Part shown: piece after piece, positions 6,091-40,353 of the stretch
Layout of the letters: every line of letters starts with the position of its first letter
Numbering within the stretch: the first letter of the stretch is position 1
Virus record (IMG/VR): IMGVR_UViG_3300037722_000745
Coordinates: 32,001 to 96,000 of that record
Source of the DNA: a virus
Taxonomy: Duplodnaviria; Caudoviricetes
DNA length: 64,000 nucleotides
Direction: 5' to 3' (one strand)
The notes under the pieces: model-generated
Database searches by the model: none
Told to the model about the DNA's origin: nothing
The model's input: the letters and a program-made list of their open reading frames with translations, nothing else
Program-made: the position numbers and the translations under genes

Positions 6091-6120
6091 GAGCTTCTGT
6101 ACACCTTCACAGGGCCAAAG

Positions 6121-6150
6121 TGACAGGCCCTACGCTTAACGGGCCTGTCA
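6121..6150. terminator. perfect 10-bp hairpin (terminator or operator)
   Basis: TGACAGGCCC-tacgcttaac-GGGCCTGTCA between the DUF1257-like gene and the AAA gene; only a short CTTT tail on the minus strand. Confidence 0.4.
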
Positions 6151-6166
6151 CACACGAACACGGTTG

Positions 6167-6493: not shown

Positions 6494-6532
6494 GTTTCCG
6501 TTTTCCTTTCTTTTCACCCTCAGGGGAAGTAC

Positions 6533-6706
6533 TCACTCAAACGTGGTTTCGTGCGCCGTGTCGCAATCAGGACCCGTAACTTCCTCGTTCTTCTGAGTCC
6601 CGATATGCTGTGTGAGCTTGTAAACTTCCCGGCAGTCCTGACCGCCTCTCTCGAGCACTTCGACGATAACTTCGCCGTTTTTCTTAATGATGGTACGTCC
6701 GCGCAT
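6533..6706 (-). CDS. DUF2997-like small protein (57 aa, below the ORF-track cutoff)
   Basis: Translated by hand: MRGRTIIKKNGEVIVEVLERGGQDCREVYKLTQHIGTQKNEEVTGPDCDTAHETTFE; GGAGG RBS; pattern I..G.V.VEV...G..C. Confidence 0.65.
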   Translation of the reverse strand: MRGRTIIKKNGEVIVEVLERGGQDCREVYKLTQHIGTQKNEEVTGPDCDTAHETTFE

Positions 6707-10648: not shown

Positions 10649-11240
10649 GAACCTTCTCTCCGATCTTGGAGACTACTTGAGTCACCAGCTTCTTGGTCTC
10701 GTCGAGTGTCAGAGAGCCTCGATCCCGCATGGACCGAATCTGGTCCAACAAGGACCCGATTCTCAAGTGAGACCCCATCTCAAAATGATCACGTTCTTCG
10801 CGCAATCGGTGCTCGCACGCATCGAAGAGATCCTCGATCTCTTCCACCAGAGGATCGTACTCGTCGGCTAGCTGAGGGATGCTTGCTTTGGGAGGCGTGA
10901 GGCCAAAAGCACGTTCGATGTTGAACAAGGTCTCGCTGAATTTGGCTTCTCCATTGTACTGCCGCCATAGACTGATCGCGTCCCATCGCTTGTGGCAAGC
11001 GAAACACCAAACGTGCGACTTGCTCTGTGGGTCTTCTGGGAAATAGCGAGCACTGGGGTTCTTGTCTTCGCCATGGAACGGGCACGAGATCTGTTCTTCG
11101 CGTTGACCTCCATAACGCAAAGAAATACCGTGACGAACTAGCACATCACCGGCTGTAACCTCGTCGTGGATATGAGCCACTCGAGCTTTCAACCATTGAT
11201 GCATGAGGTCTCTGCGATCGTTGTCGAAGTACCCCATCAC
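10617..11240 (-). CDS. CHC2 primase zinc-finger protein (no TOPRIM domain)
   Basis: CPFHGEDKNPS...WCFACH is the DnaG zinc-binding-domain signature; only 207 aa. Confidence 0.8.
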   Translation of the reverse strand: MMGYFDNDRRDLMHQWLKARVAHIHDEVTAGDVLVRHGISLRYGGQREEQISCPFHGEDKNPSARYFPEDPQSKSHVWCFACHKRWDAISLWRQYNGEAKFSETLFNIERAFGLTPPKASIPQLADEYDPLVEEIEDLFDACEHRLREERDHFEMGSHLRIGSLLDQIRSMRDRGSLTLDETKKLVTQVVSKIGEKVRASAAVDTKR

Positions 11241-24742: not shown

Positions 24743-27700
24743 CTACGCCTTACGGGTCAACGGGATTGCCGACGAGTCAATGAGCATCCGAGTGTTGTTG
24801 CGCACAAGCGGATGCCCCTCAATTCGATAGAGGTCCGCAGCCGCATACCCCTCTCCGGTGCCATTCGTACCAATACGGATGGGCGTCGGGGCTGAGGACC
24901 CAATGGGCGCATCGTAAACGCTGGTCAGAATCAGCATCATCAGCTCACTGCCAGCCGATGCCTCATTTGAACCCACGTTGGTAACGGAGTTCCGAACCAA
25001 CATGGCCCGTCCTTGAAGCGTACGAACATGATCCGTAGTGGCCGTGGCTACCGAGTTGTTCAGAGATACTGAGCCTCCGGGCCTCGGCCCGGAAGCCACA
25101 AACACGGAGCCACCACGATGCGTGCGGAAGTTCGTGTCCAGAGCGAAGTTGTTGGCCTCCCCATCTACATGGACCAAAACATCTCCAGGAGACCCAACTC
25201 CAGAGGTCGCGGTGCTCAGACGCACCTCGTGATGCTCGAGAGCCGGCGATGCAAGACCTGTGGATTGCCCTGATCCCACGGTATTTCGGTAGACGAGAGG
25301 AGCCATCACGTCCGTGTACCCGAAGTGCTGACCTCGGAAATCCTTGTCACGAAACAACGCTCCTAGAGGCAGCCGCTCCGTGCACCCGAGATACTCGGTA
25401 CCGATGTCCGGCCCGTCTCCAGCGAAGTTCGTAGGGAGAGCCTTGGGTCGTGGGTCCACACCAGAAGACGGCGGGTAGACGGACGGATCCTCGTAGGCCA
25501 CATTGGTGAACACCAAATCAGCGTCCGAAGCGTCTCCTGAATAGCGGCCCGTACCCAACGAGGTCGCGAAACTCAAGGAAGCTAGCACCTCCAACGCCTT
25601 CTCATTAGGCCGAGTCAGGTTGTCCGCATCCAATTCAGTCGACACCACATCAAAGGCATCGTCTGACATGAGCGGTCCAGGGACGTACGGGAGATCGATG
25701 TAGCTGTTCTGAGATCCCCAAGCATCCCCTTGGTACGGGGTGCGACTGTAGTTCACCAGGATCTGATCGGAGGCCGTAGCGGGTCCTGGGAGAAGCGCCG
25801 AAGGACCCGTAACACGCTTGTTGATGTTGTCTTCTCGGCTACCCGCAGCTCCCGGGTCTCCTCCGCTGCCCACATCGTCCCACGCGTTAACATTGCCAGG
25901 GCGGGTCAGTATGAGACGAGCCTCTGAATTCAGATCGAATGTGCCACGGTCAAACCCAAACACGGCCGCCTCTACCACATAGGTGCCCGAGGCGAAGTCC
26001 GCGATGGGGTTCGGCGACCGGGTGATATCGATCGCGTTGGCGTTCAAGATGAAAGTCGAGTCCCCATCCGAGTCAATTTCAATCCACATGGGCGGCCCAT
26101 CGCCCGACCTCATAGCCTGTCGCAGGAGATTCGTTGCGGTGCCGCCTCCGCCTGGCCCGCGCTCATCGGTGAAAGGGGTGCTCGAACTGATGTAGTCCTG
26201 GGCCTCGTAGACACCGAACAGGCGAGCAGCGCCATAGAAGGGCGGCAATTCCAGCCCCTCTCGACCTAGCCCTCGGGAGTCAGTGAAAAAACGCATCCCA
26301 GCAGTCTGATTCCCACTGATAACTCCCGCTGTGTTGAAACTGAGGGGGTTCGACGCAAAATCAATCTGGCTGAATACAGAGTATCGAAAAGAGGTGTTGC
26401 TATACGCAATGTAGTTGAATTGGTTCTCAACCACAGCGCCTGGAGTGCTCCGGATCATGTAGTTGATGCCGCTAGCAAAGTCGCCATCCTCCGCAATCAT
26501 TGGCACGTTCAACTCGCCCCAGCCCGGGACAAGGTGCCGGGGTAGGCTGACATAGATGTTGTTGAACGCGGGGTCCCCCGCTGATTGACTACAAAACAAC
26601 CCAAGGGGGTCTGTCTGTGTCCACTTCGGCGTGACGCCATCGACTGCGTTGAGGGGCATGACTCCTTGGGCGCTGTGAGTCGTGTAGCTGATGCCCACAG
26701 TAGCCTGGGCTCGAACAGGACGGTCGAGGGTGTAGCTAGTGGCTCCAACACTGAGGATCGTATAACGACCGGCGCCGGGTCCAGACGGAATCACCAAGGC
26801 ATCCCCGCCAACCGTAGTCCCTACACCACTCGCGTCCTCAAACACCGGCGTGTTAGCGCTGCTTGTGAAGCCTGTCGCACTGGTCAGTTTGGGAGTTGGA
26901 ACAGGGTTCGCTGCGTCCCCATCCACTGTCAGAAGATTGGGGAATTCGATTCGACGGAAAGGCGTAGCAATCACGGTCTTGCTGCCAAGATCCGCGTACA
27001 TCTCCGTGATCGACGGTAGCAAGCCGTTGAACTCTGCCGTCCGGTACTTCGCCCACAGAGGAGCCCACGCGACACGTGCTACGTGGTTGGTGTCAGGGAT
27101 GCCTCGCTCCTGCACCATCAGCAGCGACGACGGGTTGAGATAGGTGATGTTGTGCAGCGAGTCGGGGCGACGTGCGAGACCGCGTCCCGGACCATAGACT
27201 GCATGCACCCGGATGTGGAGCTGACGCGGAGACGCCGTCGTCGTAAGCTGGCTCGGGAAGCTTCCCGATAGCGTGATGATCAGGTTGTCCGCAGGCCCTG
27301 GGACCGCTGGCGTCACTGTGTACATGGTCGACGGTAGGTCGCCCGTCTCGCCAGCAAGACGCAGTTGAACAGCGCCCGTAACGCTGTCATTCAGCCACCG
27401 GATCTGATCCGTAGCACCCGCTTGAAGCCCCGTTTTGAGTTGGTTGACGGGGATCTCAATGATGTCGCCGGCTGTGAATTGGTTGCCGACCGTCTGGTTC
27501 GTCGTGTTAACGGTCAGAGATAACGACCACGGCTCGTTGATCGCCACACCAGGGCCCGGCGGCACAACACCCGAGTTGGGTCGAACCACGCACTCGATTG
27601 GTTGGATCGTCGCCGCATCAGAGAAGACCGTACGGATGTTGTCTGGAGCGTCGAGTTGCGTCACGCCCAATGACACCGCGGCCGACTGAATCGCATCCTG

Positions 27701-29062
27701 GTAATGGACGAAGGTCCCTTGGGGCCCACCGCCGGAGCGCTTCCAGTTGGCTCGCAGCTCACCCCTCAGCAGCTTGTCGACGTTGTTCTGAAGCAGCGCC
27801 GTGTAGTCCATCCCGTTAGGATTGACCGAGTGCCGTAAGTCGAGAATATCAGTGAGAGCGATCTGGTCTGAAAACAGCTCGTCGGGGCGCCCAGAAATGA
27901 CACGGATCTCAGACCCCGCCAAGTGAGCTTCCCCGATCGTTCCGTTGGTGCCTCGAGTCAGACCATTCAGCGTCGTACCGGTGATCGATGTGTAGGTCAG
28001 GATCTCGTCGCCGATTTGAATCGTCACCGCCGTCGCCGGGGAGGCGGGGAGCGGAATATTCGTGACTGAAGCAAGCGTCGCCGAAGTGGCCGTTGCGTTG
28101 AGATCCGCCGCAAGGGTTGGAACGGTAGAGAACGTCTTAACGCCTGTGCGATCGACTGCCGTCGGGTTGCGGTCGAACCCCCCATTCAAGTTCTGCGATG
28201 GGTTTCCATTCCAACCAATCGAGTTCCTACGGAACACCACCGCGATCGGAACGGCATAGCTATAGCCATCCACGGTCCCTAGCGAGGAACTAGTCCCATC
28301 ACCCGCACGCCACAACCCAGGGTCCCCCAGCTCCTCCCGCATGTTTTCAAACGTGAACGCAGTCACAGCCGAAGCCGCACCCTGCGCTTTGACAACCACA
28401 GGATCGAAGCCATCCGGGTATGTCGTCAGACCTACCAAGCCCTTGACCACACGGATGCGGTACTGGATTTGAACTCGCTGCTCTGTCTCAAACCCAAGAG
28501 CAGGATCGAGCAAATCATCTGGGAGAAAAGAGCTGCCAGACTCGACATTACCGTAGCGGTAGATGCCACTAGCAGACGGCTTGTTTGTAGTTGACGGGTT
28601 AGGCTGAATCCTGGCCTTCCACACCTCCAAAAAGACGAAGTCAATCCGGAAGTCCCCTGAATTGGAGGGAGGGGGATCAAGCGCAATGACGTTCGTCGTG
28701 TCGGTGTCATTAGGACTCCCGGGAGGAGTGCCCGTCCGTGTGCCTGTCACCGGGATCAACCACCCGTTGACGTTCGCCCACATGATAGATCGCTGCTCAC
28801 CGGCTCGCTGCGGACCGAACTTGAACCAGTTCGACCATGTGGAGTGGGTTTGGTAACTTGCCTGGGGGTTGGTCTCGTTACCCAAAAACCCAGAAGGTGT
28901 GCCGCGCAAAACCGCAGACTGCAAAGCTTCGTGAGCCAACTGCTGTTGCAGTATCAGAGCTGCGTCGGTTGGAGGCTTGCCCTGCTGCCAAATAGTGGTG
29001 ATGTACTGCGTGTCTGCCGATTGCAGGACACGGGACACTCCGGGACCTAGATTGTCGCTCAT
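24743..29062 (-). CDS. large virion structural protein (baseplate/tail associated)
   Basis: 1439 aa, G/T/S/P-rich; N-terminal part paralogous to 37771..40353; lies in the tail-fibre module. Confidence 0.75.
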   Translation of the reverse strand: MSDNLGPGVSRVLQSADTQYITTIWQQGKPPTDAALILQQQLAHEALQSAVLRGTPSGFLGNETNPQASYQTHSTWSNWFKFGPQRAGEQRSIMWANVNGWLIPVTGTRTGTPPGSPNDTDTTNVIALDPPPSNSGDFRIDFVFLEVWKARIQPNPSTTNKPSASGIYRYGNVESGSSFLPDDLLDPALGFETEQRVQIQYRIRVVKGLVGLTTYPDGFDPVVVKAQGAASAVTAFTFENMREELGDPGLWRAGDGTSSSLGTVDGYSYAVPIAVVFRRNSIGWNGNPSQNLNGGFDRNPTAVDRTGVKTFSTVPTLAADLNATATSATLASVTNIPLPASPATAVTIQIGDEILTYTSITGTTLNGLTRGTNGTIGEAHLAGSEIRVISGRPDELFSDQIALTDILDLRHSVNPNGMDYTALLQNNVDKLLRGELRANWKRSGGGPQGTFVHYQDAIQSAAVSLGVTQLDAPDNIRTVFSDAATIQPIECVVRPNSGVVPPGPGVAINEPWSLSLTVNTTNQTVGNQFTAGDIIEIPVNQLKTGLQAGATDQIRWLNDSVTGAVQLRLAGETGDLPSTMYTVTPAVPGPADNLIITLSGSFPSQLTTTASPRQLHIRVHAVYGPGRGLARRPDSLHNITYLNPSSLLMVQERGIPDTNHVARVAWAPLWAKYRTAEFNGLLPSITEMYADLGSKTVIATPFRRIEFPNLLTVDGDAANPVPTPKLTSATGFTSSANTPVFEDASGVGTTVGGDALVIPSGPGAGRYTILSVGATSYTLDRPVRAQATVGISYTTHSAQGVMPLNAVDGVTPKWTQTDPLGLFCSQSAGDPAFNNIYVSLPRHLVPGWGELNVPMIAEDGDFASGINYMIRSTPGAVVENQFNYIAYSNTSFRYSVFSQIDFASNPLSFNTAGVISGNQTAGMRFFTDSRGLGREGLELPPFYGAARLFGVYEAQDYISSSTPFTDERGPGGGGTATNLLRQAMRSGDGPPMWIEIDSDGDSTFILNANAIDITRSPNPIADFASGTYVVEAAVFGFDRGTFDLNSEARLILTRPGNVNAWDDVGSGGDPGAAGSREDNINKRVTGPSALLPGPATASDQILVNYSRTPYQGDAWGSQNSYIDLPYVPGPLMSDDAFDVVSTELDADNLTRPNEKALEVLASLSFATSLGTGRYSGDASDADLVFTNVAYEDPSVYPPSSGVDPRPKALPTNFAGDGPDIGTEYLGCTERLPLGALFRDKDFRGQHFGYTDVMAPLVYRNTVGSGQSTGLASPALEHHEVRLSTATSGVGSPGDVLVHVDGEANNFALDTNFRTHRGGSVFVASGPRPGGSVSLNNSVATATTDHVRTLQGRAMLVRNSVTNVGSNEASAGSELMMLILTSVYDAPIGSSAPTPIRIGTNGTGEGYAAADLYRIEGHPLVRNNTRMLIDSSAIPLTRKA

Positions 29063-29137: not shown

Positions 29138-29333
29138 GGTTTTCGAGAGGCCCGGTGGTGTGTTACCCTCGGGAGTCTCTCGCATTCTGCGGGTTCTCTG
29201 AGAATTCAATAGGTTAGAAAGATCCGGATCCCGATCGGCCTCTGGATCCAAGGGGTCCCAACCCATGATCCCACAGGGGGGTCTCGCAAACCGCCTTGTG
29301 AACCTCCGAATTCACACGGTTTCTCAGAATCCC
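29138..29333 (+). promoter_or_regulatory. CRISPR leader 1
   Basis: Non-coding 196 bp abutting repeat 1; about 93% identical by hand alignment to 32402..32597; IHF-like ATTCAATAGGTTA at 29204-29216. Confidence 0.75.
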
Positions 29334-29884
29334 CTTGAGGGAGGTGAAAGCCTCCCTCGTAATTGAAACAAGACGGCGAAGGGCAACGCAACCTCGGAAC
29401 CTACGGGCTTGAGGGAGGTGAAAGCCTCCCTCGTAATTGAAACTGCTCGCTGAGTGATCGATCGAGATTGGTGGTGAAGCTTGAGGGAGGTGAAAGCCTC
29501 CCTCGTAATTGAAACCTGGAGCTGGGTAGCCGCTGCCTCCGCTGCCATGGCCCTGCTTGAGGGAGGTGAAAGCCTCCCTCGTAATTGAAACCAGGAAGCC
29601 CAGGCCGTCTACGCGTCGCAGAGCGACCCTTGAGGGAGGTGAAAGCCTCCCTCGTAATTGAAACCAGACAACTGAGTTCCTACGGAACACCACCGCGATC
29701 GGGCTTGAGGGAGGTGAAAGCCTCCCTCGTAATTGAAACGACGGGCGACGTCGTCGCTGGCCTGCCGGGATTCGGCTTGAGGGAGGTGAAAGCCTCCCTC
29801 GTAATTGAAACCAGGCGGCTGCGCTCCTTGACGGCGGCGACGAATCCGCTTGAGGTAGGCGGATGCCTACCTCGTAATTGAAAA
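29334..29884 (+). CRISPR. CRISPR array 1: 8 repeats, 7 spacers (36-40 nt)
   Basis: Repeat CTTGAGGGAGGTGAAAGCCTCCCTCGTAATTGAAAC (36 nt; usually preceded by G) at 29334, 29408, 29480, 29556, 29629, 29704 and 29776; variant terminal repeat at 29849; 8-bp hairpin and ATTGAAAC 3' handle. Confidence 0.97.
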
Positions 29885-29938
29885 CTTTAAGATTTACCGA
29901 CCTTGAACTGTAATACTCTAGAGGGGGCCTAAAAAACC

Positions 29939-32380
29939 ATGACCAGATCCATTTTCGTTTTCTCTCTGATTCTAACCGCCTGTAGTACCGGGGGCCCTAT
30001 CGAACTACCCTCCTCCAAGGAAGGGTTCTCAGATGGAGGGGCTAGTTTCGTTGGCTCTGAACTTAGCGATGACGGGGGTAATAACCCAACGATCTCCGAC
30101 TCCAGCGTCACAGCCGACGGATCGTCTACAGCAGCCGACGGATCGTCTACAGACGCACACAAGCCAGAAGAAGCGGACGGGGGGGCCCCACCAGTCGATG
30201 CTGGGTCTCCCGCCGATGCGGACGCGGAGACAGACACCGAAGACGGAGGGGACTCCGATCTTCGTACTCCTGATGGGGGCGAAACAGAAACGGACGCGAC
30301 TCCCGACGACGATTGCCCAGGCTCTGGCCCGGGAGTAAAGTGTGAAGGTCGGGACAGATTCGCGTGCGTCTCCGGACAGTGGGTCATACAAGAGACTTGT
30401 GACCACACGTGTCAAGCAGGGGCTTGTGTAGGGGAGTGTGACCCGGGAAGCACGGACTGTTTGAACGAGCACCCGCGGACTTGTAACTCCAACGGGCTAT
30501 GGGACGTGGGTTTGGCTTGCTCGTTTGTATGCTCGGAAGGTTCCTGCGTAGGCGAGTGTGACCCCGGGGCCACCGACTGCCAAGGCGATGTGCCTCGAAC
30601 CTGCAACTCGCAAGGGCAGTGGGTAGAGAGTTCGGCCTGCGCGTTTGTATGCTCCGACGGAGCCTGCGTGGGGGTGTGTGAACCAGGCGATCGAAATTGC
30701 TCGGGAGACACTCCTCGTCAGTGCGATGCTTCGGGCCAGTGGGTCAACGAAGCCGCTTGTCCCTTCGTTTGCAGTGAAGGTGTGTGCTCCGGTGCATGCG
30801 ACCCAGGAGCAACAAGCTGCGCAGGGGACACCCCCCGTACGTGCAATGATTCCGGTGTGTGGGTCAACGGAACGACGTGTCCTTTCACATGCTCGGGAGG
30901 TTCGTGTACCGGGGTGTGTGAGCCTGGCGACCGTGATTGCTCGGGCCTGACACCCCGAAGCTGCAATGCCGCGGGGCAGTGGGTCAACGAGACCGCTTGT
31001 CCCTTCGTTTGTTCGGGAGAGGGCGTCTGTATCGGAAGCTGCACTCCGAACGACACTGATTGCCAGGGAGATGTCCCCCGGACTTGCAATTCGCAGGGTC
31101 AATGGGTGAGCGGTTCTGCCTGCCAGTTCGTGTGCTCTGACGGTGCCTGTACCGGCGTGTGCGAACCTGGCGATGTCCAGTGCTCGGGGAGCCAGATTCA
31201 AACCTGCAACTCGCAGGGCCAATGGGGCACTGCGGCCAACTGCCCAAGCGTGGCCGGTGCCAATGCTTACTGCCTGAACGACGCCTGCACCTTCGACTGC
31301 CAGCTCGACTACGACGATTGCGACGGCAACCCTGCCAACGGCTGCGAAGCCCACCTGGAGACCGACAGCAACAACTGCGGGAGCTGCGGACACTCTTGCT
31401 GCGGGGGTGCTTGTGGCAGCGGGACATGCGAGGTCTACGATTCCGGACTCCGCACCGTTTCCACCTGGGAGGTAGACTCCAACAGCATTTATACGACCGC
31501 CGTTAACGGTCAGACGGTGACCATCCAGCAGACACCACGTGAAGGGGGCGCCACATCGGCGATGGCCTCAATCACTGGCGACACAACATCCCCCCGGGTC
31601 ACCGATTTGGCCTCAAACGGAACCAACCTGTTTTGGAGCCTTCGAGAAGGGGGGGTGTTGTCGGTGCCGCTCGACGGTTCTGGACAGTACGAGTCCTGGT
31701 ACATAAACACCATCGACACATTCACCGTCAGTTCCAATCACGGGGCGTACACGTGGTACAACCTCTCAGCCACCGGAGAGCTATTGTTGGATGCTACTCG
31801 GGTTTACTGGTTCGGGACCAGCTCCGGTTTCGTCAACTGGAAGTGGCTGGTGACCCCCACACAGACCGGCGGGTCATTCGTGCTACCTGACGCTCCGACC
31901 CATCTAGTCTCAGATGGGGATTATATCTACGCGACGCCCCATACGGCACTGAATCCAATCAGCCGTCACAACCTTGCGTTCGACAACAACGAGAGCTTCG
32001 TCACATCAACCTCGACGAACTACGTCTTCGGACGAACCAGCGCCAGCGACGGTGTCTACCTCTACTACGTGTACTATGACGGCCCCAACCCCGCAGATGG
32101 GGGCATTTGGAAGAAGCCCCTGAACGGCGGATCCGCTACCCAGATCGTAGCTGACCCCCGAGTGCAAGCATACGTCGCTACCGACGGCTTGAACGTCTAT
32201 TACATCTCGGATCCAAACACATCCAACCCGGTCATCCGCAAGGTTCCAGTGACCGGTGGTAGCTCCGCCCCGCTTGTGACGTACGACCTACCCACCTGGA
32301 ACTCCGAGCTGAAGGTCGTGGACGAGTGCCTCTACTGGCATCGGAGCACGGGGATCAAGGCCATCGCCGTCAATCCCTAG
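29939..32380 (+). CDS. Cys-rich repeat lipoprotein with a C-terminal beta-propeller-like domain (myxobacterial type)
   Basis: Lipobox LTAC at residues 12-15; acidic linker; eight ~40-aa Cys-rich repeats (about six Cys each); CDGNPANGCE..TD.NNCG.CG motif; YW/SDG-containing blade-like repeats. Confidence 0.8.
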   Translation: MTRSIFVFSLILTACSTGGPIELPSSKEGFSDGGASFVGSELSDDGGNNPTISDSSVTADGSSTAADGSSTDAHKPEEADGGAPPVDAGSPADADAETDTEDGGDSDLRTPDGGETETDATPDDDCPGSGPGVKCEGRDRFACVSGQWVIQETCDHTCQAGACVGECDPGSTDCLNEHPRTCNSNGLWDVGLACSFVCSEGSCVGECDPGATDCQGDVPRTCNSQGQWVESSACAFVCSDGACVGVCEPGDRNCSGDTPRQCDASGQWVNEAACPFVCSEGVCSGACDPGATSCAGDTPRTCNDSGVWVNGTTCPFTCSGGSCTGVCEPGDRDCSGLTPRSCNAAGQWVNETACPFVCSGEGVCIGSCTPNDTDCQGDVPRTCNSQGQWVSGSACQFVCSDGACTGVCEPGDVQCSGSQIQTCNSQGQWGTAANCPSVAGANAYCLNDACTFDCQLDYDDCDGNPANGCEAHLETDSNNCGSCGHSCCGGACGSGTCEVYDSGLRTVSTWEVDSNSIYTTAVNGQTVTIQQTPREGGATSAMASITGDTTSPRVTDLASNGTNLFWSLREGGVLSVPLDGSGQYESWYINTIDTFTVSSNHGAYTWYNLSATGELLLDATRVYWFGTSSGFVNWKWLVTPTQTGGSFVLPDAPTHLVSDGDYIYATPHTALNPISRHNLAFDNNESFVTSTSTNYVFGRTSASDGVYLYYVYYDGPNPADGGIWKKPLNGGSATQIVADPRVQAYVATDGLNVYYISDPNTSNPVIRKVPVTGGSSAPLVTYDLPTWNSELKVVDECLYWHRSTGIKAIAVNP
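30314..31290 (+). repeat. eight tandem ~120-bp Cys-rich coding repeats
   Basis: Consensus C[DE]PG.T.C.G..PR.CN..GQWV....C.FVCS.G.C.G; end coordinate approximate. Confidence 0.85.
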
Positions 32381-32401
32381 ATGGTGCGCGTGACCTCAGC
32401 A

Positions 32402-32597
32402 GGTTTTCGAGAGCCTCAGTGGTGTGTTACCCTCGGGAGTCTCTCGCATTCTGCGGGTTCTCTGAAAATTCAATAGGTTAGATGGATCCGGATCCCGATC
32501 GGCTTCTGGATCCAAGGGGTTCCGGCACATGATCCCACAGGGGGTCTCGCAAACCGCCTTGTGAACCTCCGAATTCACACGGTTTCTCAGACTCCCC
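32402..32597 (+). promoter_or_regulatory. CRISPR leader 2 (duplicate of leader 1)
   Basis: 196-bp near-copy of 29138..29333; IHF-like site at 32468-32480. Confidence 0.75.
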
Positions 32598-33586
32598 CCT
32601 GAGGGAGGTACCCGCCTCCCTCGTAATTGAAACGACGATGTCGATTTTCTGCGCCTCAGTTGCAGGCTTCCCCTGAGGGAGGTACCCGCCTCCCTCGTAA
32701 TTGAAACGACGCGGCTGAGATCTACGAGCGGATCTGTGATCCCCTGAGGGAGGTACCCGCCTCCCTCGTAATTGAAACAAACAACCCCTCGCCGACAACG
32801 TAGGACTTGCTACTGCGGTCCTGAGGGAGGTACCCGCCTCCCTCGTAATTGAAACGACGCGGCTGAGATCTACGAGCGGATCTGTGATCCCCTGAGGGAG
32901 GTACCCGCCTCCCTCGTAATTGAAACTAGTGGGCGAAGTGGAGTGCAGTCGCTGCGATGTGGTCCCTGAGGGAGGTACCCGCCTCCCTCGTAATTGAAAC
33001 TCATGACGACGTGGGGCGTATCGCCCAGCGCTTCGGCCCCCTGAGGGAGGTACCCGCCTCCCTCGTAATTGAAACAAACAACCCCTCGCCGACAACGTAG
33101 GACTTGCTACTGCGGTCCTGAGGGAGGTACCCGCCTCCCTCGTAATTGAAACGGTCTAACTGACGGCGGCATCGCGTCCGTGCTCTGGCCCTGAGGGAGG
33201 TGAAAGCCTCCCTCGTAATTGAAACCACACGATCGCGTCCAGCGGGAGATCGTACCCCCCTCCCTGAGGGAGGTGAAAGCCTCCCTCGTAATTGAAACTA
33301 ATTGAAACAGATCGTCTCGCAGCAAGTTCAGGTCGAAAGATGCTGGCCCTGAGGGAGGTGAAAGCCTCCCTCGTAATTGAAACACCGTGGCGCACGAGGT
33401 CGGGCACTGGCAGCTGCACCGGCCTGAGGGAGGTGAAAGCCTCCCTCGTAATTGAAATGTAGGGAGAGATCCGACCCATGGCCCGTGAGCCCTGAGGAAG
33501 GTGAAAGCCTCCCTCGTAATTGAAACTAGAGCTGCGTGGTGCGGGTGGAGGCGTGGCCGGCGTCCTGAGGGAGGTGAAAGCCTCCC
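32598..33586 (+). CRISPR. CRISPR array 2: 13 full repeats + 1 truncated repeat, 13 spacers (11 unique)
   Basis: Repeats CCTGAGGGAGG-TACCCG-CCTCCCTCGTAATTGAAAC (first 8: 32598, 32672, 32743, 32820, 32891, 32965, 33040, 33117), then loop TGAAAG (33190, 33263, 33348, 33423, 33491, truncated 33564). Confidence 0.97.
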
Positions 33587-33590
33587 CGGG

Positions 33591-34211
33591 TCAGAAGATC
33601 AACGCCCAAGACCCTAGGTACACCCGGTTCGATGACGTATTGCCGAACGCCAGGATGAAATCAGAACCTTGATCCGACACGGGAATGTTGAGCACTTCAC
33701 CGTTATTGATCGGGTTCGTGTTCAGCCCGTTATCGAACGAGACGATACAATCCAAATCGCTGCCGGAGCCCTCCACGTACGTGTGTTGGTACCTACCCGT
33801 TTTATCATCCGAGACTTGGAATGAGTACTCCTCCCAAACCAAAACACATACGGTAGGGGTCGAGATCAAGCTTACAGCGGCTGAAGTGGCGATCGAACCA
33901 AGACCCAAGAAACAGTGGTTCACCAAACCCGAGCTGAGTGACACCTTGAATGACTGCGCTGTGTCGAACGTAAGTACGTCCAGGCAGGGATCTGCGACGA
34001 TATTGGTGAACCCAGGGTAGGTGGCCAGCAGCCCATCGTACTTCTCAGTGAGTAACGTAGCGCGGTCTACCGGATTGCTTTGGATCGCCACACCATCTGG
34101 GATCCTGACAACCGTAGACCCCGTGGAGTCGGTTTGGCCGTTGGTCGCTGTGGCGACGTCGATGATGTCACCTGAGACCGTGTACGGGTCGATGAGGTAG
34201 TGGATGCTCAT
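33591..34211 (-). CDS. virion structural protein (tail-fibre associated)
   Basis: 206 aa, coupled to the tail-fibre gene; its stop codon abuts the truncated last CRISPR repeat. Confidence 0.6.
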   Translation of the reverse strand: MSIHYLIDPYTVSGDIIDVATATNGQTDSTGSTVVRIPDGVAIQSNPVDRATLLTEKYDGLLATYPGFTNIVADPCLDVLTFDTAQSFKVSLSSGLVNHCFLGLGSIATSAAVSLISTPTVCVLVWEEYSFQVSDDKTGRYQHTYVEGSGSDLDCIVSFDNGLNTNPINNGEVLNIPVSDQGSDFILAFGNTSSNRVYLGSWALIF

Positions 34212-34213
34212 AG

Positions 34214-37200
34214 TTACTTGACCCTGGGCCCTCTGAAGATCTGACCACCGTCACCAACAACCCAAACAGACCGATCCGCTACAATAGCGTGAGCCGGAAC
34301 CATCGCAGACACCACATGATCGACAGCGTAGTCGGGCGTGCCAAACCCCTTATACGCACCAGTGATGCCCAACATCGCAGTATCTGGATCCCCGCCAAAG
34401 ACGGATATTGTGCGATCCATCAAGAGAGGCACAGCATAGAAGAAGTCCCCTCCGGGTTCATGCCAAGTGATCCCATCCGCTGAGTACAACATCCGATTCG
34501 TCAGAGGAGTGCCAATTCCGATCACGACAAATCCGTGAAGAGGGTGGTATCGGATCCTGTCCAGATCTAAGACCGTTCCGGATGTTCGAATGGTCCATGT
34601 GACACCGGTGGGAGATGTTTGGATTTCCCCCCCGTCTCCGACAGCCACAAACAACCCTGCACCAAACGCCACATCTCGGATAGAGGTCGTCCCCGCGCTC
34701 GTCCGAGATGTCCACGTGGCCAACGCAGTGGAGGAGAAGATGGTGGATGTGTTCCCGACAGCCACAAACGTACCTGCACCGTTCGAAGCTATTCCGTTCA
34801 GATTGGCACCCCCGGTGTTTCGCTGCGTCCACGTGGCGCCAGTTGGGGACGTTTGGATCTCTCCAGACGTCCCCACCGCCGCAAACGCCGTCAAGGTTGG
34901 ATCCCACACCACAGCATTGAAATCCCCCGCATAGGCAGCGTCGGCGGTTTGAGAAGCGAAAGCGGTCTCGGGATCTAGAGCGGCGGTGATCGTTGCAGAG
35001 AGTCCAACGGCTACCAAGCTTCTATTTGCTGGGTCGTACGTGATACCGGTGAGATCATTGGCGACACCTGAAGTCACATCCCTGAGTGCGGATAGAGCGA
35101 CCACTTCAATGGCCTCACTCGGGTTCCCGTCAATGATGTTGCCGAGTCCAGTGTCTACAACTGAACCCCCGCCTTCCACATCAGCGTTGATGAACACAGA
35201 GTCATTGACCCGGTTGTAGTCACCGCTCACCTCAATCGTGAGCGCGTCTCCTGCCCCATCGCCAAGGAGAGTGGTGCCCGTTACGATCCCATAGTCCCCA
35301 GCCAGCAGTAAAGCCGCCGTGTCGCCATTGGAGTCCACACGGGTGTTCGAAATGTAAACCCGGCTCGATCCAGAGTCAGTCACAATCGCTTCGTAGGGCC
35401 CTCCCGTAGTGCGAGAGAAACGGTTGGACTCCAATACGACATCGTCAGAAGTGGTGACTTGAATCCCTGTGCCTGTACCCGCCCCACCAAGAAGAAAGTT
35501 GTTGCTTCGGGCCTCAAAGAAGTCGGCGTTCGTCAGTTCGATGAACGGAGCCGATACGTTAGGACGGCTCAACGTGCAATTCTCCACGACAGTAGCCCCG
35601 GATGCTGTCAGGACTGGCTGGCTGATACTGGCGCTCAATTCCAAGATGCAGTCAGTGACCCGACCCTTACCCAACGAATCAATCAAAGCTCCCGTCGATC
35701 CGTCGAGCATCAACACCCGTATGTTCTTTACCGTCGGGTAGGATTCCCCAGAAGCAGTCATCCGAACCAACGAGCTAGCGGAGACTGCAGAGAGATTGCA
35801 AACGACTAGGCTGCTGTCCAACACACTACGGCGGAACACGTCTACGTAGGCAGCGGTTGATTTGTAGATCACACCCCGACCGACGTAGACATTACGGCTG
35901 TAGCAGTTGTATAACTGCACTCCGGTCTCGCCAGAGAAGCTGGATGTCCCATGAGATCCTGACGAAGGACCTTCGACTTGGATCCCGTAGAAATCCACAC
36001 CCGTAGCCTTGACAATACCGCGGGCATCCAAGCCAAAGTCGGGTTCCTTGATGTTCAGGACCTGCAGGTTGCGAACAACACACATCTGCGAGTTCGGATC
36101 TTCGTCGTCAGGAGGGTTGATCAACCCTCCTCGGATTTCGACGATCATGGCCCGCGCAGATCCAGAGGTGAAGATCGTGGCCCGACCGTTTCCCGAGGCC
36201 GCCCATTGGACCTCCCCCAGGTCGATGGTCACATCGTTGAAAGTCGATGCAGTCCCCTCAAATCCACCGTAGGAATCGATCACTAGGAGACTGTCTTGAT
36301 GTTGGTTCACCACGGTGCTGGAGGGTTGAATTCTCAACCCATGAACTTCACAGGCACCATGGTCGGTCGTAACCGTAGTAAGAGCCCCACCAAAGAAGAC
36401 GACTGGTTGCCCTGTTCCAACCCCACCGGTCGTCCGTGTGTTCGATTGCCCATACTCCATGCGAACATCACGCAACACGAGAGATTGGGCTGGAAGCCCA
36501 AAAGAATTGGTCCTAGGCGTTCCCCATCCATAGAACAGCTGATTACCAGCACCCGCAGATCCATCCCCTCCTTGGAACACGACGTTACTCAACACCCCAC
36601 CCGAATTGCTGAAGCCTCCAGCCTGACCGTCGTCCGACAACACAACCCCGTCATGGATCCCCAATCCGTAGCAGTCTACCCCTGCCATAGCCGAAATCAC
36701 ACCACCGGTGCTCTCGATCCGGAAGTTCCTCAACGTGGCTCCAAGTGCTCCATTATAGGCAATCGCAGGAGCCGGGATCGATGTAGCAACGAAATTCAGA
36801 ATTGTGTTTTGCCGCCCTGTGTCTGCCACCCCTGAGACCCCGCCCGCGGGGATCACGTAGTTCGACAAAGTCAGACCATCCACAGTGTTGTGATCCCCTG
36901 AAAGATCCACTGTGACTGAGTTGTAAGCCGACAGACTGTCAACCACAACGTCTCGAATCATGTTGTAGTCGCCGGAAACGTCCAGGACCGGATCAGTCAG
37001 ACCGTTCACCGAAGTTACGATCCCGTCTTCGATGAGGTTCCTACTACCTGTGACTTCGAACTGACTGTTGTTGAAGCCTCGCACTTCGTTGTCCGTGCTC
37101 GAGATCACGAACTTAGCAGGGGAGCTGGCTGTGATGTGCTCGAACACATTACGTGTGGTGGAAACGTTGATGTCCCCTGTTACAGCAAGTGCGACTTCCC

Positions 37201-37771
37201 GAACTACACTACCACCACCCGCGGCCTGGAGGTTGTTGGAGAGCGTGAGGATCAGATTCTCAAAGCGGCTTCGCGCTCCCAGACGCAGGTTGCCCGCCAA
37301 GTTTTGGATGTTCACATCACTTCGGCGCGAACCAATCACGGTGCAGTTATCAAACACTGCAGAGTCGTCCCAGGTGTACGTTCCTGGCCTTAGGAACAAC
37401 ACTGGCTGTCGAGTCGAGAGTAGACCCGAGGCCATAGCATCGATCAAAGCACTAGCACCCGCGAAGTCAGCCACACCAGCAGGGTTAGCGTCCAAGACCC
37501 AGAAGGCCCGGGAGTTAACCGCGGCTAGAAGCTCGACTAGCCCTGTGTCGACCGACCCAGCTGTGATGGCGAGATCCGTGTCTCCAGAATGGCTTCCCTG
37601 TCCAATCGCCGTCGACTGGTGGGCGTCAATCGTGTCAGTGATGTGAGCTTCTAGAGCGGCGCCGGAGCTTCCTGACGAAGGAAACACAAGGGCTCCCGCC
37701 GGCACCGTGTTAGAGGGCAGCCTACCCGGTCCAGGTTGCACCGTAGCGACAGGATCTTTGGTGGATGGCAT
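34214..37771 (-). CDS. tail fibre / receptor-binding protein (beta-helix + BNR-type propeller)
   Basis: AHITD..DAHQSTAI fibre-base motif; long pectin-lyase-like beta-helix; C-terminal repeats VAVG..GEIQTSPTG.TWT.R. Confidence 0.7.
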   Translation of the reverse strand: MPSTKDPVATVQPGPGRLPSNTVPAGALVFPSSGSSGAALEAHITDTIDAHQSTAIGQGSHSGDTDLAITAGSVDTGLVELLAAVNSRAFWVLDANPAGVADFAGASALIDAMASGLLSTRQPVLFLRPGTYTWDDSAVFDNCTVIGSRRSDVNIQNLAGNLRLGARSRFENLILTLSNNLQAAGGGSVVREVALAVTGDINVSTTRNVFEHITASSPAKFVISSTDNEVRGFNNSQFEVTGSRNLIEDGIVTSVNGLTDPVLDVSGDYNMIRDVVVDSLSAYNSVTVDLSGDHNTVDGLTLSNYVIPAGGVSGVADTGRQNTILNFVATSIPAPAIAYNGALGATLRNFRIESTGGVISAMAGVDCYGLGIHDGVVLSDDGQAGGFSNSGGVLSNVVFQGGDGSAGAGNQLFYGWGTPRTNSFGLPAQSLVLRDVRMEYGQSNTRTTGGVGTGQPVVFFGGALTTVTTDHGACEVHGLRIQPSSTVVNQHQDSLLVIDSYGGFEGTASTFNDVTIDLGEVQWAASGNGRATIFTSGSARAMIVEIRGGLINPPDDEDPNSQMCVVRNLQVLNIKEPDFGLDARGIVKATGVDFYGIQVEGPSSGSHGTSSFSGETGVQLYNCYSRNVYVGRGVIYKSTAAYVDVFRRSVLDSSLVVCNLSAVSASSLVRMTASGESYPTVKNIRVLMLDGSTGALIDSLGKGRVTDCILELSASISQPVLTASGATVVENCTLSRPNVSAPFIELTNADFFEARSNNFLLGGAGTGTGIQVTTSDDVVLESNRFSRTTGGPYEAIVTDSGSSRVYISNTRVDSNGDTAALLLAGDYGIVTGTTLLGDGAGDALTIEVSGDYNRVNDSVFINADVEGGGSVVDTGLGNIIDGNPSEAIEVVALSALRDVTSGVANDLTGITYDPANRSLVAVGLSATITAALDPETAFASQTADAAYAGDFNAVVWDPTLTAFAAVGTSGEIQTSPTGATWTQRNTGGANLNGIASNGAGTFVAVGNTSTIFSSTALATWTSRTSAGTTSIRDVAFGAGLFVAVGDGGEIQTSPTGVTWTIRTSGTVLDLDRIRYHPLHGFVVIGIGTPLTNRMLYSADGITWHEPGGDFFYAVPLLMDRTISVFGGDPDTAMLGITGAYKGFGTPDYAVDHVVSAMVPAHAIVADRSVWVVGDGGQIFRGPRVK

Positions 37772-40353
37772 TAGCTAGCCCTCTTGCTGAGGAGATTCCC
37801 CTTAAGCCTGAACACAGCAGCTGTTGTGGTGTTGGTGTCCAAGTCTGCATCAAAAAACACACCGTTCGTCGCATCGAACAATGCGTACCGAATCAGCAAA
37901 ACCAGCACGAGTTGTCCTCGATACCCAAGTGCGCTATCCGCAGCTAGCTCCACGATCAGAGGGTAGATGTCCTTGTGCCGATCGGGGTTGCTGAGATCTT
38001 GAGCGTAGGCGTTCGGGATGTACCCTGCGGGCACTTCCTTGAAAAACGTCCTGCCCTCTACGTCGATATCCCCACCGCCGCGGTTTAGCGTCAGGGCATC
38101 AGGCTCTGCGACCATCGGCACATAGACCGGCAACCGTAGAAGTCCCGTTTGAGCATCAAAGTCCGCCACAGAAACTTCGGATCTCCCGGACAACTCACTC
38201 TCACCGGAGTACGTGGCCAAGTTGCTGGGAAAGATCCCACCCGTCTGAACATACGCTCCTTCAAAGGGGTAACCTTCGTCCTGAGACCCGGAACCAGTTG
38301 TCAACGAGTACAGGAAATCACTCGTAACCCTTGGTATCACGTCCAAGCTTGCACCCAAGAGAGCGGCCCTTGCTGTTTGGGGCGCTGCCGTGCGGAAATA
38401 GATCGTGAGTTGTTCGTCATTCTGTGGAAGGGGACGTCGGGCTGAGTAGGTGACCACGATCGTGTCGCCCGGACTGGCTGCCGCTGTGAAAGACACGATT
38501 CGACCCGTCACGTCGACACCGGACGTCGCCGTAGGCACCGCATTGACCGTCACGCTCACGAGAGATTCGATCCTCTCCGGCATGTACACAGTCGAAGTCG
38601 ACCCTACAGGGAACGCCGCCAAGGTATGCGTAAGGATGTCGACTGTCTCGTACTCGAGATGCACCTCTCGATGGGGGTAATCAAAGTCAGGAGACAAAAG
38701 CTGGTCATAGGAGACAGGGGCTCCAGCCGGAAGCTGTGCAGGGTTGTTGAGGAAGAAGCTGTTGGCCCCGTAGTCCGCAACCGGAGTGTGAGACATTCCA
38801 ACGCCCGTTGGGTATCCAACCAAGAGGGTCACGTGCAGCGGTTCGTCTGTGACCGCTGCGTCCACCGTGAGGAATAGAACCGTGAGGGAGGTGATGGGAA
38901 CCGCGCCCATCCCGGTGATCGTTTGGATATGGGGTATTGCGTCAGCAGTCACTTTCGGAGGAACGTCTACCCACCGAGCATCGAGCACATCCATGAACCG
39001 GACGTCCGCCGGAGCGTGGGAAGCCCAGTTGAAAGTGTAAACCCCTGTTCCGGGGTACACAGCCATCGCCGTGGGATCAATCACGACGGAGGACCCGGCC
39101 ATCCAACCACCTCCGGGTGCCGGAATGATCACAGTGACCGTCTCCAAGACGGATCGATCAGAGAACCTTCGTCGGACCGCATCGAATTGACCGATGAACT
39201 CGCCCGCAGTTGTATCACCGGTTGTGACCCCATCCCCGGGTAGGACTCCGATCTCATTCGCTGTAAAGACTGTCGAGCCTGAGTACCCACCACCCGTGGG
39301 GGATGTGTCCATGAACTCAGATCGCAGAGCGTTGTCGAACAAGAAGTTCACGTTGCGTTCGAGCAGCTCCCGCATGTCCCATCCAGTTGGGGACACACCG
39401 GAACGAAGATCCAGGACGTCTTCCGCTACGAGGAGATCGTAGAACAACCCGTCGGGACGATCCGAAGGGCCCGGCGTGGCTACTCCCCCATTGTGATTGA
39501 GGCGACGATCGAAAGCCGCTGTGTTACGCCGAAACACCGCCAGCAGGGGAACCGCGTACATATAGCCGTCCACAGTGCCCAAGGTGTTGGCCGGATTGCC
39601 ATCACCAGCCAACCAAAGGCCAGGATCTCCACTGGCTGATTGGTTTGCATAGGCGAACAACGTAGCGGACCCATCTGGGGCCGCAGCACTGGCGGGCACC
39701 GTGTTCGCGACCACGGTCGGGTCATCCAACGCATAGGGGTAGGTGGCAAGATCTACTCCCTGCACGACCCGCAGCCGGTATTGGATCTGCACTCTCTTTG
39801 TGGTCTCTGATCCGACGTTCGCGTCGAGGATATCATCGGCGTAGTTCAGGACCAGATCGTTAGCCGGATCCGTAGAGACGTTACCCTCTTGCCAAATACG
39901 GCCCGTAACGCTCTTGCCATCGACGTCCGGGGAAGCAGACAGAAGTTTCCTCCATACCTCCAAGAAGACGAGGTCCGTGCGCTGAACACCCTGTCCAGCG
40001 GGCGCCGCTCCCAAATCGATCTGGTTGGTGCCCGTGGCGTAGGAATGCCGAACCTTGATCAACCAACCATTGACGTGGGCCAGGATGTCGTTGGGGATTT
40101 CAATGGTGTCGACAACGGCCGATGCGCTGAAGATGGCGCCAACCGGATCTGTTTGCTGCAGGAAATCATCCGACACCCAGCCCGAGGGCGTAGAACGCCG
40201 CAGGACGGCTTGAGCCGCGCCCCCGTCCACATCCTGGAGAAGATTGTACTCTCTGTCTAGTACCGGGACCCCGGCTTTGTAGACGACCGTTTCCCAGGCC
40301 CTCCCCTCGGGCACGTTGTAACCACTGGTCCCAGGCCCAAAATTCTTTGCCAT
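37771..40353 (-). CDS. virion structural protein, paralogue of 24743..29062
   Basis: Shared motifs D.VFLEVW, ET..RVQIQYR.RVV, DPGLW.AGDG, LGTVDGY.YAVP..VFRRN. Confidence 0.75.
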   Translation of the reverse strand: MAKNFGPGTSGYNVPEGRAWETVVYKAGVPVLDREYNLLQDVDGGAAQAVLRRSTPSGWVSDDFLQQTDPVGAIFSASAVVDTIEIPNDILAHVNGWLIKVRHSYATGTNQIDLGAAPAGQGVQRTDLVFLEVWRKLLSASPDVDGKSVTGRIWQEGNVSTDPANDLVLNYADDILDANVGSETTKRVQIQYRLRVVQGVDLATYPYALDDPTVVANTVPASAAAPDGSATLFAYANQSASGDPGLWLAGDGNPANTLGTVDGYMYAVPLLAVFRRNTAAFDRRLNHNGGVATPGPSDRPDGLFYDLLVAEDVLDLRSGVSPTGWDMRELLERNVNFLFDNALRSEFMDTSPTGGGYSGSTVFTANEIGVLPGDGVTTGDTTAGEFIGQFDAVRRRFSDRSVLETVTVIIPAPGGGWMAGSSVVIDPTAMAVYPGTGVYTFNWASHAPADVRFMDVLDARWVDVPPKVTADAIPHIQTITGMGAVPITSLTVLFLTVDAAVTDEPLHVTLLVGYPTGVGMSHTPVADYGANSFFLNNPAQLPAGAPVSYDQLLSPDFDYPHREVHLEYETVDILTHTLAAFPVGSTSTVYMPERIESLVSVTVNAVPTATSGVDVTGRIVSFTAAASPGDTIVVTYSARRPLPQNDEQLTIYFRTAAPQTARAALLGASLDVIPRVTSDFLYSLTTGSGSQDEGYPFEGAYVQTGGIFPSNLATYSGESELSGRSEVSVADFDAQTGLLRLPVYVPMVAEPDALTLNRGGGDIDVEGRTFFKEVPAGYIPNAYAQDLSNPDRHKDIYPLIVELAADSALGYRGQLVLVLLIRYALFDATNGVFFDADLDTNTTTAAVFRLKGNLLSKRAS

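Follow-up and report, generated by a model that had tools for sequence, protein, structure and literature searches.

Among viruses that turn adaptive immunity on each other, huge phages with CRISPR arrays are a main example. Virus-borne orphan arrays and mini-arrays, such as the mini-arrays of the archaeal viruses SPV1 and SPV2, reportedly serve in virus-virus conflict (a view associated with Medvedeva 2019 and Faure 2019). Such arrays are also treated in PMC11656645 and PMC7099407, and phage arrays with repeats common to the host were described by Al-Shayeb 2020 (PMC7162821). The same study found a type I-C variant together with CasPhi in huge phages related to the one analyzed here (Al-Shayeb 2020, PMC7162821). 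In type I-C systems Cas5d cuts the repeat at the base of its hairpin, and the resulting 5' tag is 11 nt long; the I-C repeat of B. halodurans terminates in GGATTGAAAT (PMC3890593). We analyzed a 64-kb stretch of DNA (the window) that is part of a 323-kb huge-phage contig about 68% complete; the phage encodes CasPhi and is of the Biggiephage kind. We think it probable that this phage has at least four genuine arrays of the type I-C class, arrays A and B of the window among them, and that these supply guides against competitors to a Cascade whose genes are absent from the 323 kb.

Anatomy of the arrays and architecture of the repeat

Arrays A and B are located in the tail-fibre region, around a gene encoding an 813-aa lipoprotein, and both lie on the plus strand. 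Upstream of the block, and divergent from it, the minus strand encodes a tail-fibre-like protein of 1439 aa (24743-29062) with weak PHROG matches to tail and tail-fibre families; its N-terminal ~290 aa are common to an 860-aa protein encoded at 37771-40353. The 3' side of array B adjoins a minus-strand gene for a 206-aa protein (33591-34211), a gene that directly adjoins the fibre gene in five more distant relatives. Beyond it the minus strand encodes an 1185-aa beta-helix, tailspike-like protein (34214-37771; PF13229, with a score just under the cut-off). Leader A (29138-29333, plus strand, ~196 nt) precedes array A (29334-29884, plus strand), in which 7 spacers of 36-40 nt separate 8 repeats of 36 nt (CTTGAGGGAGGTGAAAGCCTCCCTCGTAATTGAAAC). 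Leader B (32402-32597, plus strand), 92-98% identical to leader A, precedes array B (32598-33586, plus strand), with 13 full repeats, a truncated 14th and 13 spacers. This is exactly the layout given in the initial annotation, namely a plus-strand block between two minus-strand genes with two leaders, one gene and 20 spacers, 18 of them unique because spacers 2 and 4 of array B are identical, as are spacers 3 and 7.

In all, the two arrays contain 22 repeats of 36 nt, and their unique spacers are mostly 35-41 nt long, with outliers of 32 and 49 nt. Each array has its leader at one end and degenerate or truncated repeats at the other. The last repeat of array A carries 6 substitutions, two of which keep the stem paired. 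In array B the loop reads TACCCG in the 8 leader-proximal repeats and TGAAAG in the 5 distal ones, and the newer loop variant lies beside the leader in array B and also in array C, a third array found elsewhere in the genome. An alignment of leaders A, B and C shows that all three are conserved, so that the intact leaders and leader-to-trailer polarity claimed initially are borne out by this alignment and by the degenerate distal repeats. A sigma-70-like promoter was sought in the leader and none was found. The junctions between fibre gene and leader A, from array A through the lipoprotein gene to leader B, and between array B and the downstream genes are all present in contigs that were independently built from 3-4 public runs of sediment and soil. 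This shows that the block is no assembly chimera, a concern that had been raised at the outset. These observations confirm that both arrays in the window are genuine CRISPR arrays, leader-bearing, polar and phage-borne.

It is very unlikely that the arrays are decaying relics that came from the host or another phage and have lost their function. Such an origin would fit the irregularities that we observed (the duplicated spacers, the truncated last repeat, one unit of array C that is fused, and a 10-nt duplication of a repeat end in one unit). No Cas partner was found and, apart from the one match described below, no targets. However, the stem is perfectly paired and the tail exact in 19 of the 22 repeats of the window, and the degenerate terminal repeat of array A preserves its stem by compensatory change. 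In addition, the three 196-nt leaders are conserved and several independent metagenomes contain the same sequence. It turned up in no RNA run.

The repeat consists of an 8-9-bp hairpin followed by an 11-nt unpaired tail ending in ATTGAAAC, and folding of the hairpin gives -18 kcal/mol (z = -5.7 against shuffles). Since a hairpin, an 11-nt 3' tail and an ATTGAAAC-like end are the marks of a type I-C or I-C variant repeat, its architecture is of the type I-C class. The same layout of hairpin plus 11-nt tail is found in the relative G004, where the array follows a cas5d-csd1-csd2-helicase operon, and in GWF2_PHAGE_CIR_41_11, where an array with the tail AGTATTGAAAC adjoins Csd1/Csd2. The arrays could conversely be read from the minus strand, co-directionally with the structural genes, for a Cas12-type effector (CasPhi or other). 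The reverse complement of the repeat is GTTTCAATTAC-hairpin-AAG, which leaves 3 nt between the hairpin and the 3' end, the arrangement of type V repeats; the minus strand also carries the surrounding genes, and the genome does encode Cas12j/CasPhi, about 153 kb from arrays A and B. However, such a reading would begin with the degenerate or truncated repeats and have the leader downstream, the array beside cas12j has a repeat unrelated to that of arrays A and B, and relatives carry the same architecture co-directionally after I-C genes. The spacer match in the fibre gene described below also has no TBN PAM, and its mismatches would be mostly PAM-distal in a type V reading. We consequently give minus-strand use only a very slight chance and keep the plus-strand, type I-C reading.

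The lipoprotein gene and the dispersed repeat family

The gene between the two arrays (29939-32380, plus strand, 813 aa) encodes a protein with a lipobox (LTAC), an acidic linker, about 8 cysteine-rich repeats of 40 aa and a C-terminal beta-propeller, an architecture that resembles the EGF repeats and YWTD propeller of LRP/LDL receptors. Family searches gave no family match and no similarity to known exclusion lipoproteins of the Llp/Cor type; the 7 homologues found are all on metagenome contigs, the longest of 291 kb. The two closest relatives have a homologue at the same divergent position beside the fibre gene, without any array. This indicates that the gene is not cargo, as first proposed, but a resident, lineage-specific gene for a putative envelope protein; it belongs to the receptor-binding region of the phage lineage and is not a passenger of the CRISPR block. 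The arrays were inserted around the lipoprotein gene, which is probably co-transcribed with array A, and together they do not form a mobile unit.

The repeat family extends well beyond the window. A leader-array module of the same family (array C) is present at genome 120 kb, a fourth, leaderless array at genome position 1 is cut by the contig start, and solitary repeats and leader fragments occur at five other, intergenic sites of the 323-kb contig. Arrays A and B are thus copies of a repeat family scattered over the phage genome and not a self-contained mobile island, as the initial annotation had it. In its full form that proposal, which we consider unlikely, is that of a mobile Cas-less island relying on host Cas, with continuing spacer acquisition and with the lipoprotein as exchangeable, entry-blocking cargo. 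It can draw on the intact leaders and clear polarity, on the leader-proximal repeat variant, which implies past addition of units at the leader end, on the directly repeated leaders on both sides of the lipoprotein gene, on the lipobox of the 813-aa protein and on the lack of a cas gene nearby. Against it stand the array-free relatives and the dispersed modules and solitary repeats just described, the difference between this lipoprotein and known exclusion lipoproteins, and the failure to find a host with this repeat. Gain or loss of the whole block as one unit was not seen among relatives or strains. Cas1, Cas2 and Cas4 are absent from the 323 kb, which speaks against autonomous spacer acquisition, and the contigs contain no deletion joint between leaders of the kind that excision of the gene by leader-leader recombination would leave.

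The position of some repeats suggests another role, in which they act mainly as RNA-processing or expression signals and Cas5d-type cutting just upstream of start codons defines mRNA ends. A repeat lies 9 nt before the ATG of an RNase HII gene, another 54 nt before that of the lipoprotein gene, and others 19-34 nt and 25 nt before two further ORFs. Additional repeat-to-ATG junctions occur on metagenome contigs and are missing from the phage contig, and the array of GWF2_PHAGE_CIR_41_11 likewise runs straight into an ATG. However, this would leave the unique spacers and the leaders unexplained, and only 4 of the 9 repeat ends are close upstream of an ORF. As the main function of the repeats we find it quite improbable. 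Marginally less so, though still rather unlikely, is a combination of the two roles, in which one I-C-class repeat serves as genome-wide punctuation: the arrays would provide guides against kin, and the repeats before the start codons of the lipoprotein, RNase HII and other genes would tie accessory-gene expression or mRNA 5' ends to one Cas5d-type cleavage. If this were true, anti-competitor immunity and phage gene expression would be coupled to a single RNA-processing activity, perhaps one that the phage does not encode.

A kin-type spacer and the presumed Cascade

Spacer A5 (29665-29703, plus strand) is kin- or self-like and matches positions 28212-28250, within the fibre gene, at 34 of 39 nucleotides. 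The protospacer-like site (28209-28250, plus strand) has 5'-TTC at 28209-28211, directly upstream of the match; this flank is seen at one such site only (n = 1), with a chance of 1 in 64. The mismatches are at spacer positions 3, 4, 8, 9 and 39, so four of the five fall within positions 1-9 (p about 0.01 by our estimate). Spacer A5 encodes ...NSVVW, the consensus of the relatives, and the phage's own fibre gene encodes ...NSIGW. The putative TTC PAM, the seed mismatches to the own copy and the consensus residues together point to a spacer aimed at kin phages. The own fibre gene would be expected to escape because its copy differs at seed positions. A5 is the only one of the 32 unique spacers with any match. 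All other spacers gave chance-level matches to the phage genome, and no other spacer target was found in the whole records of five relatives, in INPHARED or, with six spacer words, in IMG/VR. One spacer, with its match to the kin allele of the neighbouring fibre gene, agrees with the anti-competitor role initially assigned to the arrays; the remaining spacers add no target to it.

The arrays and solitary repeats might instead be RNA decoys, resembling RNA anti-CRISPRs (Racrs) or crRNA-like regulators, that soak up or misdirect host I-C Cas5/Cas7 and guide no interference against other phages. The solitary repeats dispersed in the genome, the lack of an encoded cognate Cas and the scarcity of spacer targets would agree with this, and prophage type I-C Racrs are documented (PMC10651486). 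However, a decoy does not need over 30 diverse spacers of regular length, nor conserved leaders or growth at the leader end; these are traits of guide arrays. Real interference pressure is indicated by the kin-allele spacer, its putative TTC PAM and the seed changes by which the own copy would escape, and no known host I-C system has this repeat. We regard decoys as improbable and retain guide arrays as the preferred reading.

How these guides would work can be outlined from the sequence features. Each array would be transcribed on the plus strand from its conserved leader, as the leader position and the degenerate distal repeats suggest. A Cas5d-type enzyme would cut the pre-crRNA hairpin at the 3' base of the stem, giving the 11-nt handle GUAAUUGAAAC. 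The guides would then load a Cascade of type I-C or of the huge-phage I-C variant, encoded outside the 323 kb at hand, and would be directed at competing phages, close kin included; one of the spacers matches a conserved motif of the adjacent fibre gene in its consensus form, alongside a putative TTC PAM.

The initial annotation called the locus Cas-less. No cas gene was found within the 64-kb window and none adjoins arrays A and B, as had been stated. Scanning the whole 323-kb contig returned Cas12j, with its different repeat, as the only cas gene. No Cas5d, Csd1, Csd2, helicase homologue, Cas6 or RAMP and no cas1, cas2 or cas4 is encoded in these 323 kb of a record about 68% complete. The absence of cognate cas genes thus extends to the whole contig, but three things keep the term Cas-less unproven: part of the genome is missing, an array of the same family is cut by the contig start, and a matching I-C variant operon is present in a relative. 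The repeat of arrays A and B has no match in 185,579 species genomes of prokaryotes or in JGI metagenome contigs, so that matching the repeat to host arrays did not yield a host, which may be unsampled, and the borrowing of host Cas gained no backing. As the 323 kb likewise lack cognate cas genes, host and phage are both only candidate sources of Cas. We put the chance that the matching Cascade is encoded in the unassembled part of the phage genome at a little under one half and the chance that the host supplies it slightly lower, leaving a small remainder for an unknown source.

Comparison with known systems

Exclusion lipoproteins such as Llp of T5 and Cor are small proteins. The lipoprotein described here resembles them as a phage-encoded lipobox protein beside receptor-binding genes, but it is 813 aa long, combines EGF-like cysteine repeats with a beta-propeller and has no sequence similarity to them. 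With virus-borne orphan arrays the locus shares the lack of cognate cas genes nearby and a spacer against a conserved structural gene of close kin, to which the carrier's own copy is mismatched. It differs from them in the far greater size of its arrays (7 + 13 + 13 + at least 3 spacers) and in their long leaders; moreover, no host with the same repeat was found and the carrier genome is incomplete. As in Racrs (Camara-Wilpert et al. 2023, PMC10651486), of which type I-C examples exist, there are solitary intergenic repeat copies, five in this genome, whereas arrays A and B are full arrays with spacers and leaders and not single repeat units. Canonical bacterial type I-C systems (B. halodurans, D. 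vulgaris; PMC3890593) have in common with this locus the hairpin, the 11-nt tail ending ATTGAAA(C/T) and the TTC, seen here at a single protospacer-like site. Their repeats are 32 nt long and not 36 nt, however, their spacers are slightly shorter and less variable, and the adjacent cas3-cas5-cas8c-cas7-cas4-cas1-cas2 operon has no counterpart here.

The closest system is the type I-C variant of huge phages that also carry CasPhi (PMC7162821; G004, GWF2_PHAGE_CIR_41_11), which shares the CasPhi huge-phage setting, the 36-nt repeat with its 8-9-bp hairpin and 11-nt tail, spacers of about 35-40 nt, the absence of Cas1/Cas2 and arrays that run into downstream genes. Unlike that system, the 323 kb at hand lack the cas5d-csd1-csd2-helicase operon, the single array beside the operon is replaced by arrays at three or more dispersed sites, each with its own leader copy, and the repeat sequence is unique to this phage. 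Phage-borne arrays without their own Cas genes nearby are already known, and this is no new kind of system. What the case adds is a CasPhi phage that also has a second repeat family, of class 1 type, in several dispersed arrays with a leader each, and a concrete kin-directed spacer whose target motif has seed changes in the fibre gene of the carrier itself.

Two leader-preceded arrays around a lipoprotein gene

Repeat finding and direct reading delimited leader A (29138-29333, + strand, 196 nt) and array A (29334-29884, +), which consists of eight 36-nt repeats and seven spacers. These are followed on the same strand by an ORF encoding an 813-aa lipoprotein (29939-32380), leader B (32402-32597; 92-98% identity to leader A) and array B (32598-33586), where 13 spacers are set among 13 full repeats and a truncated one. 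Since two of the array B spacers each occur twice, the two arrays total 20 spacers, 18 of them unique, as the initial annotation had counted. The duplication is internal to array B (32672-33153), spacers 2 and 3 being seen again as spacers 4 and 7, which points to recombination among the repeats, not to acquisition of new spacers. Array B also contains an irregular unit in which a repeat end is duplicated in tandem (33299-33308, 10 nt, TAATTGAAAC) and opens one spacer.

The block has the GC content of its surroundings and the large genes adjoining it lie on the minus strand. The 1439-aa product of the neighbouring fibre gene has weak PHROG matches to tail and tail-fibre families, and the 1185-aa neighbour is a beta-helix protein. 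The fibre protein (24743-29062) and an 860-aa protein (37771-40353) have their first ~290 residues in common (36% identity) and diverge beyond, as expected of alternative receptor-binding proteins on one anchor. Together the PHROG matches, the beta-helix and this common N-terminal module make "tail-fibre region", the location first proposed, a reasonable description. The genes lying between the 860-aa and 1439-aa genes are swapped among relatives. Three junctions (fibre gene to leader A, array A across the lipoprotein gene to leader B, and array B to the downstream genes) are spanned by contigs that were assembled independently from several public runs on sediment and soil, some of them perhaps the sample of origin. 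The block is thus no chimera, a possibility that the initial annotation had raised.

The 813-aa protein has a lipobox (LTAC), an acidic linker, about eight cysteine-rich repeats of 40 residues and a C-terminal all-beta domain. It matched no family in Pfam, PHROG or NCBIfam, and only seven homologues were found among 5.8 billion proteins, all on metagenome contigs (longest 291 kb). The structural model (mean pLDDT 60 overall, 70-90 in the propeller) and a fold search suggest with moderate confidence EGF-like repeats and a YWTD-type propeller, like LRP/LDL-receptor ectodomains; our guess is that the protein acts at the cell surface and may serve exclusion. The gene had been read as cargo of the arrays, but the two closest relatives of the phage (fibre protein 70% identical) carry a 38%-identical homologue at the same divergent position by the fibre gene, where no array flanks it. 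This indicates that the lipoprotein gene is resident in a receptor-binding hotspot, itself variable, and that the arrays were added around it. In more distant relatives the 206-aa gene (33591-34211 in the window) directly adjoins the fibre gene. On the huge-phage-like contig (40% GC) carrying the closest lipoprotein homologue, a 604-aa TnpB/Cas12f-like gene (4839-6653 of locus L087) lies ~2.3 kb downstream of that homologue.

Repeat architecture and huge-phage relatives

Both loop variants of the repeat, and also the degenerate terminal repeat of array A, fold into an 8-9-bp hairpin, the degenerate copy retaining its stem via paired G-to-T and C-to-A changes. Pure decay of the arrays is contradicted by this conservation of the stem and by that of the leader. 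The hairpin is followed by 11 unpaired bases, GTAATTGAAAC. Type I-C repeats are cleaved by Cas5d at the hairpin base to leave an 11-nt 5' tag (PMC3890593), and the hairpin with its 11-nt tail has this type I-C layout. A crRNA transcribed from the plus strand would carry the 5' 11-nt handle GUAAUUGAAAC and end with the hairpin. An Rfam scan of the window at gathering thresholds returned no CRISPR-DR family and no other RNA, and no sigma-70 promoter was detected in the leaders.

The window spans bases 32001-96000 of a single 323,174-bp IMG/VR virus record (G000), classed as linear and ~68% complete. Outside the window it encodes a full-length, 718-aa Cas12j/CasPhi (218,308-220,464, - strand; L012:15682-17835; E = 2e-159 to PDB 7LYS, CasPhi-2), which makes it a phage of the Biggiephage kind. 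Related huge phages with CasPhi and a "type I-C variant" have been described, the variant being without Cas1 and Cas2 and having a helicase in place of Cas3 (Al-Shayeb et al. 2020, PMC7162821). In one genome of that study, GWF2_PHAGE_CIR_41_11, an array with the tail AGTATTGAAAC adjoins Csd1 and Csd2. Among the relatives found via the fibre protein, G004 carries cas5d-csd1-csd2-helicase and then a long array, whose repeat is like ours in having a hairpin and an 11-nt tail. This array (L085:8524-10870) opens with 11 identical repeats; in the ~20 units that follow, the stems are all different yet paired (CAGGAGCC/GGCTCCTG, CAGGTGC/GCACCTG and others) and the 11-nt tail ATGATTTCAAC is retained, so that a single array holds many compensatory stem variants. 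Csd2 is absent from four of five relatives' records, including one rated 100% complete by CheckV, indicating that the I-C operon is variable within the group. No synteny was observed between the G004 cas region and G000, none of five relatives has ATTGAAAC-type arrays, and neither the GWF2 repeat nor the whole island matched INPHARED phages. Arrays A and B are genuine and well preserved, and belong to the I-C class of huge-phage arrays.

Repeat copies across the genome and the source of Cas proteins

The repeat was also found far outside the window. A further array occupies G000 1-257, the contig beginning within a repeat, and a full array of 13 repeats, array C (120,214-121,201), has a leader as in arrays A and B and contains an irregular fused unit with a 5'-truncated repeat (120323-120395). 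Five solitary copies lie at 10,712, 223,772, 285,970 (-), 286,131 and 322,376 (-), and leader fragments at 223.7 kb and 286.0 kb. Leaders B and C are closer to each other than either is to leader A. Arrays B and C both have the loop TACCCG near the leader and TGAAAG farther off, with no spacer in common, a pattern consistent with units having been added at the leader end and with arrays having exchanged the leader and first repeat. The self-contained island with cargo originally envisaged is not supported, since the repeat family occurs at other G000 sites and the lipoprotein gene is resident.

The solitary repeat at 10712-10747 (L001) fills the gap between the stop of an 83-aa ORF (4 nt before) and the ATG of RNase HII (9 nt after); the 10 nt 3' of it (AAACGACCTA) also follow the last repeat of the contig-start array. 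The stretch 285970-286166 (L016:5282-5478) separates a 5'-nucleotidase-like gene from an M10 metallopeptidase gene; in it, two inverted repeat copies flank the initial ~105 nt of an array leader, and it resembles a leader module that was rearranged or inverted. Products adjoining the other arrays and solitary repeats (RNase HII, NT5C nucleotidase, M10 peptidase, a DHH-like fold, unknowns) include nothing Cas-like. Metagenome contigs show extra repeat contexts not in G000, for example a repeat running directly into an ATG. The position of repeats 9-54 nt ahead of several start codons suggests a role in RNA processing, which however leaves the spacers unexplained. A Racr-like decoy role suits arrays A and B less well than it does the solitary repeats.

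HMM searches covering all six frames of the 323 kb detected no Cas6, Cas5d, Cas7 (Csd2), RAMP, Cas1, Cas2 or Cas4, and tblastn with the four G004 proteins found nothing. The scan of the rest of the genome proposed initially thus yielded Cas12j only, and the small array beside its gene (217852-218109) has an unrelated ~36-nt repeat. Arrays A and B are orphan within the available DNA; "Cas-less" holds for cognate cas genes in these 323 kb and is unproven for the whole genome, of which a quarter to a third is missing, the contig starting inside an array. A tandem repeat (323000-323174, ~50-nt unit) closes the record and a CRISPR repeat is cut by its start, indicating that both ends are places where assembly broke at repeats and not genome termini; an exact-protein look-up to extend the contig start had nothing on record.

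Matching the repeat to host arrays, as had been suggested, gave no host: no species genome or JGI metagenome contig carries it, and its exact 19-mer had no match in genome_contigs, viral_contigs or metagenome_contigs. A two-repeat tail pattern hit just unrelated arrays, cyanobacterial and other, in genome_contigs, and a relaxed stem-plus-tail pattern hit two single hairpins, by chance, in metagenome contigs. With G004's Cas7 as the query for a Cas7 of this phage, the nearest protein was P0003 (50% identity), whose contig is unrelated, has 61% GC and does not carry the repeat. The database used seemingly does not show the phage's own proteins (P0001 did not match itself), so this route is not decisive. 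The missing part of the phage genome and the host are about equally probable sources of the cognate Cascade.

A spacer matching the fibre gene

Only one spacer gave an above-chance match. Spacer A5 (29665-29703) agrees with the fibre gene (28212-28250) at 34 of 39 positions, compared with 20-28 for shuffled controls and other spacers. The site, a single one, has TTC, the type I-C PAM, directly 5'. Mismatches fall at spacer positions 3, 4, 8, 9 and 39, four of the five in the seed. Reading the repeats on the minus strand, as type V, is contradicted by the PAM and the mismatch position, as well as by leader position and repeat decay. In the fibre-gene frame the spacer reads ...RRNSVVW, whereas the phage's own gene reads ...RRNSIGW; the motif is conserved, reading SVVW, TVVW, SVAW or TVSW in relatives. 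The spacer thus preserves the allele prevalent among kin phages or one carried by an ancestor. The carrier's own fibre gene is altered exactly where interference would be most sensitive, a putative signature of interference pressure and of targeting inside the kin group. No variant allele with a perfect A5 protospacer was seen in four metagenomes, whose contigs drop rare variants. Comparison of the spacers with 14 relatives' loci and five relatives' whole records, and of six spacer words with IMG/VR, gave zero or chance-level matches.

In all, arrays A and B probably served against kin phages. Phages are on record as carrying arrays that lack adaptation or effector genes (PMC7162821), and to this known kind arrays A and B add some instructive details.
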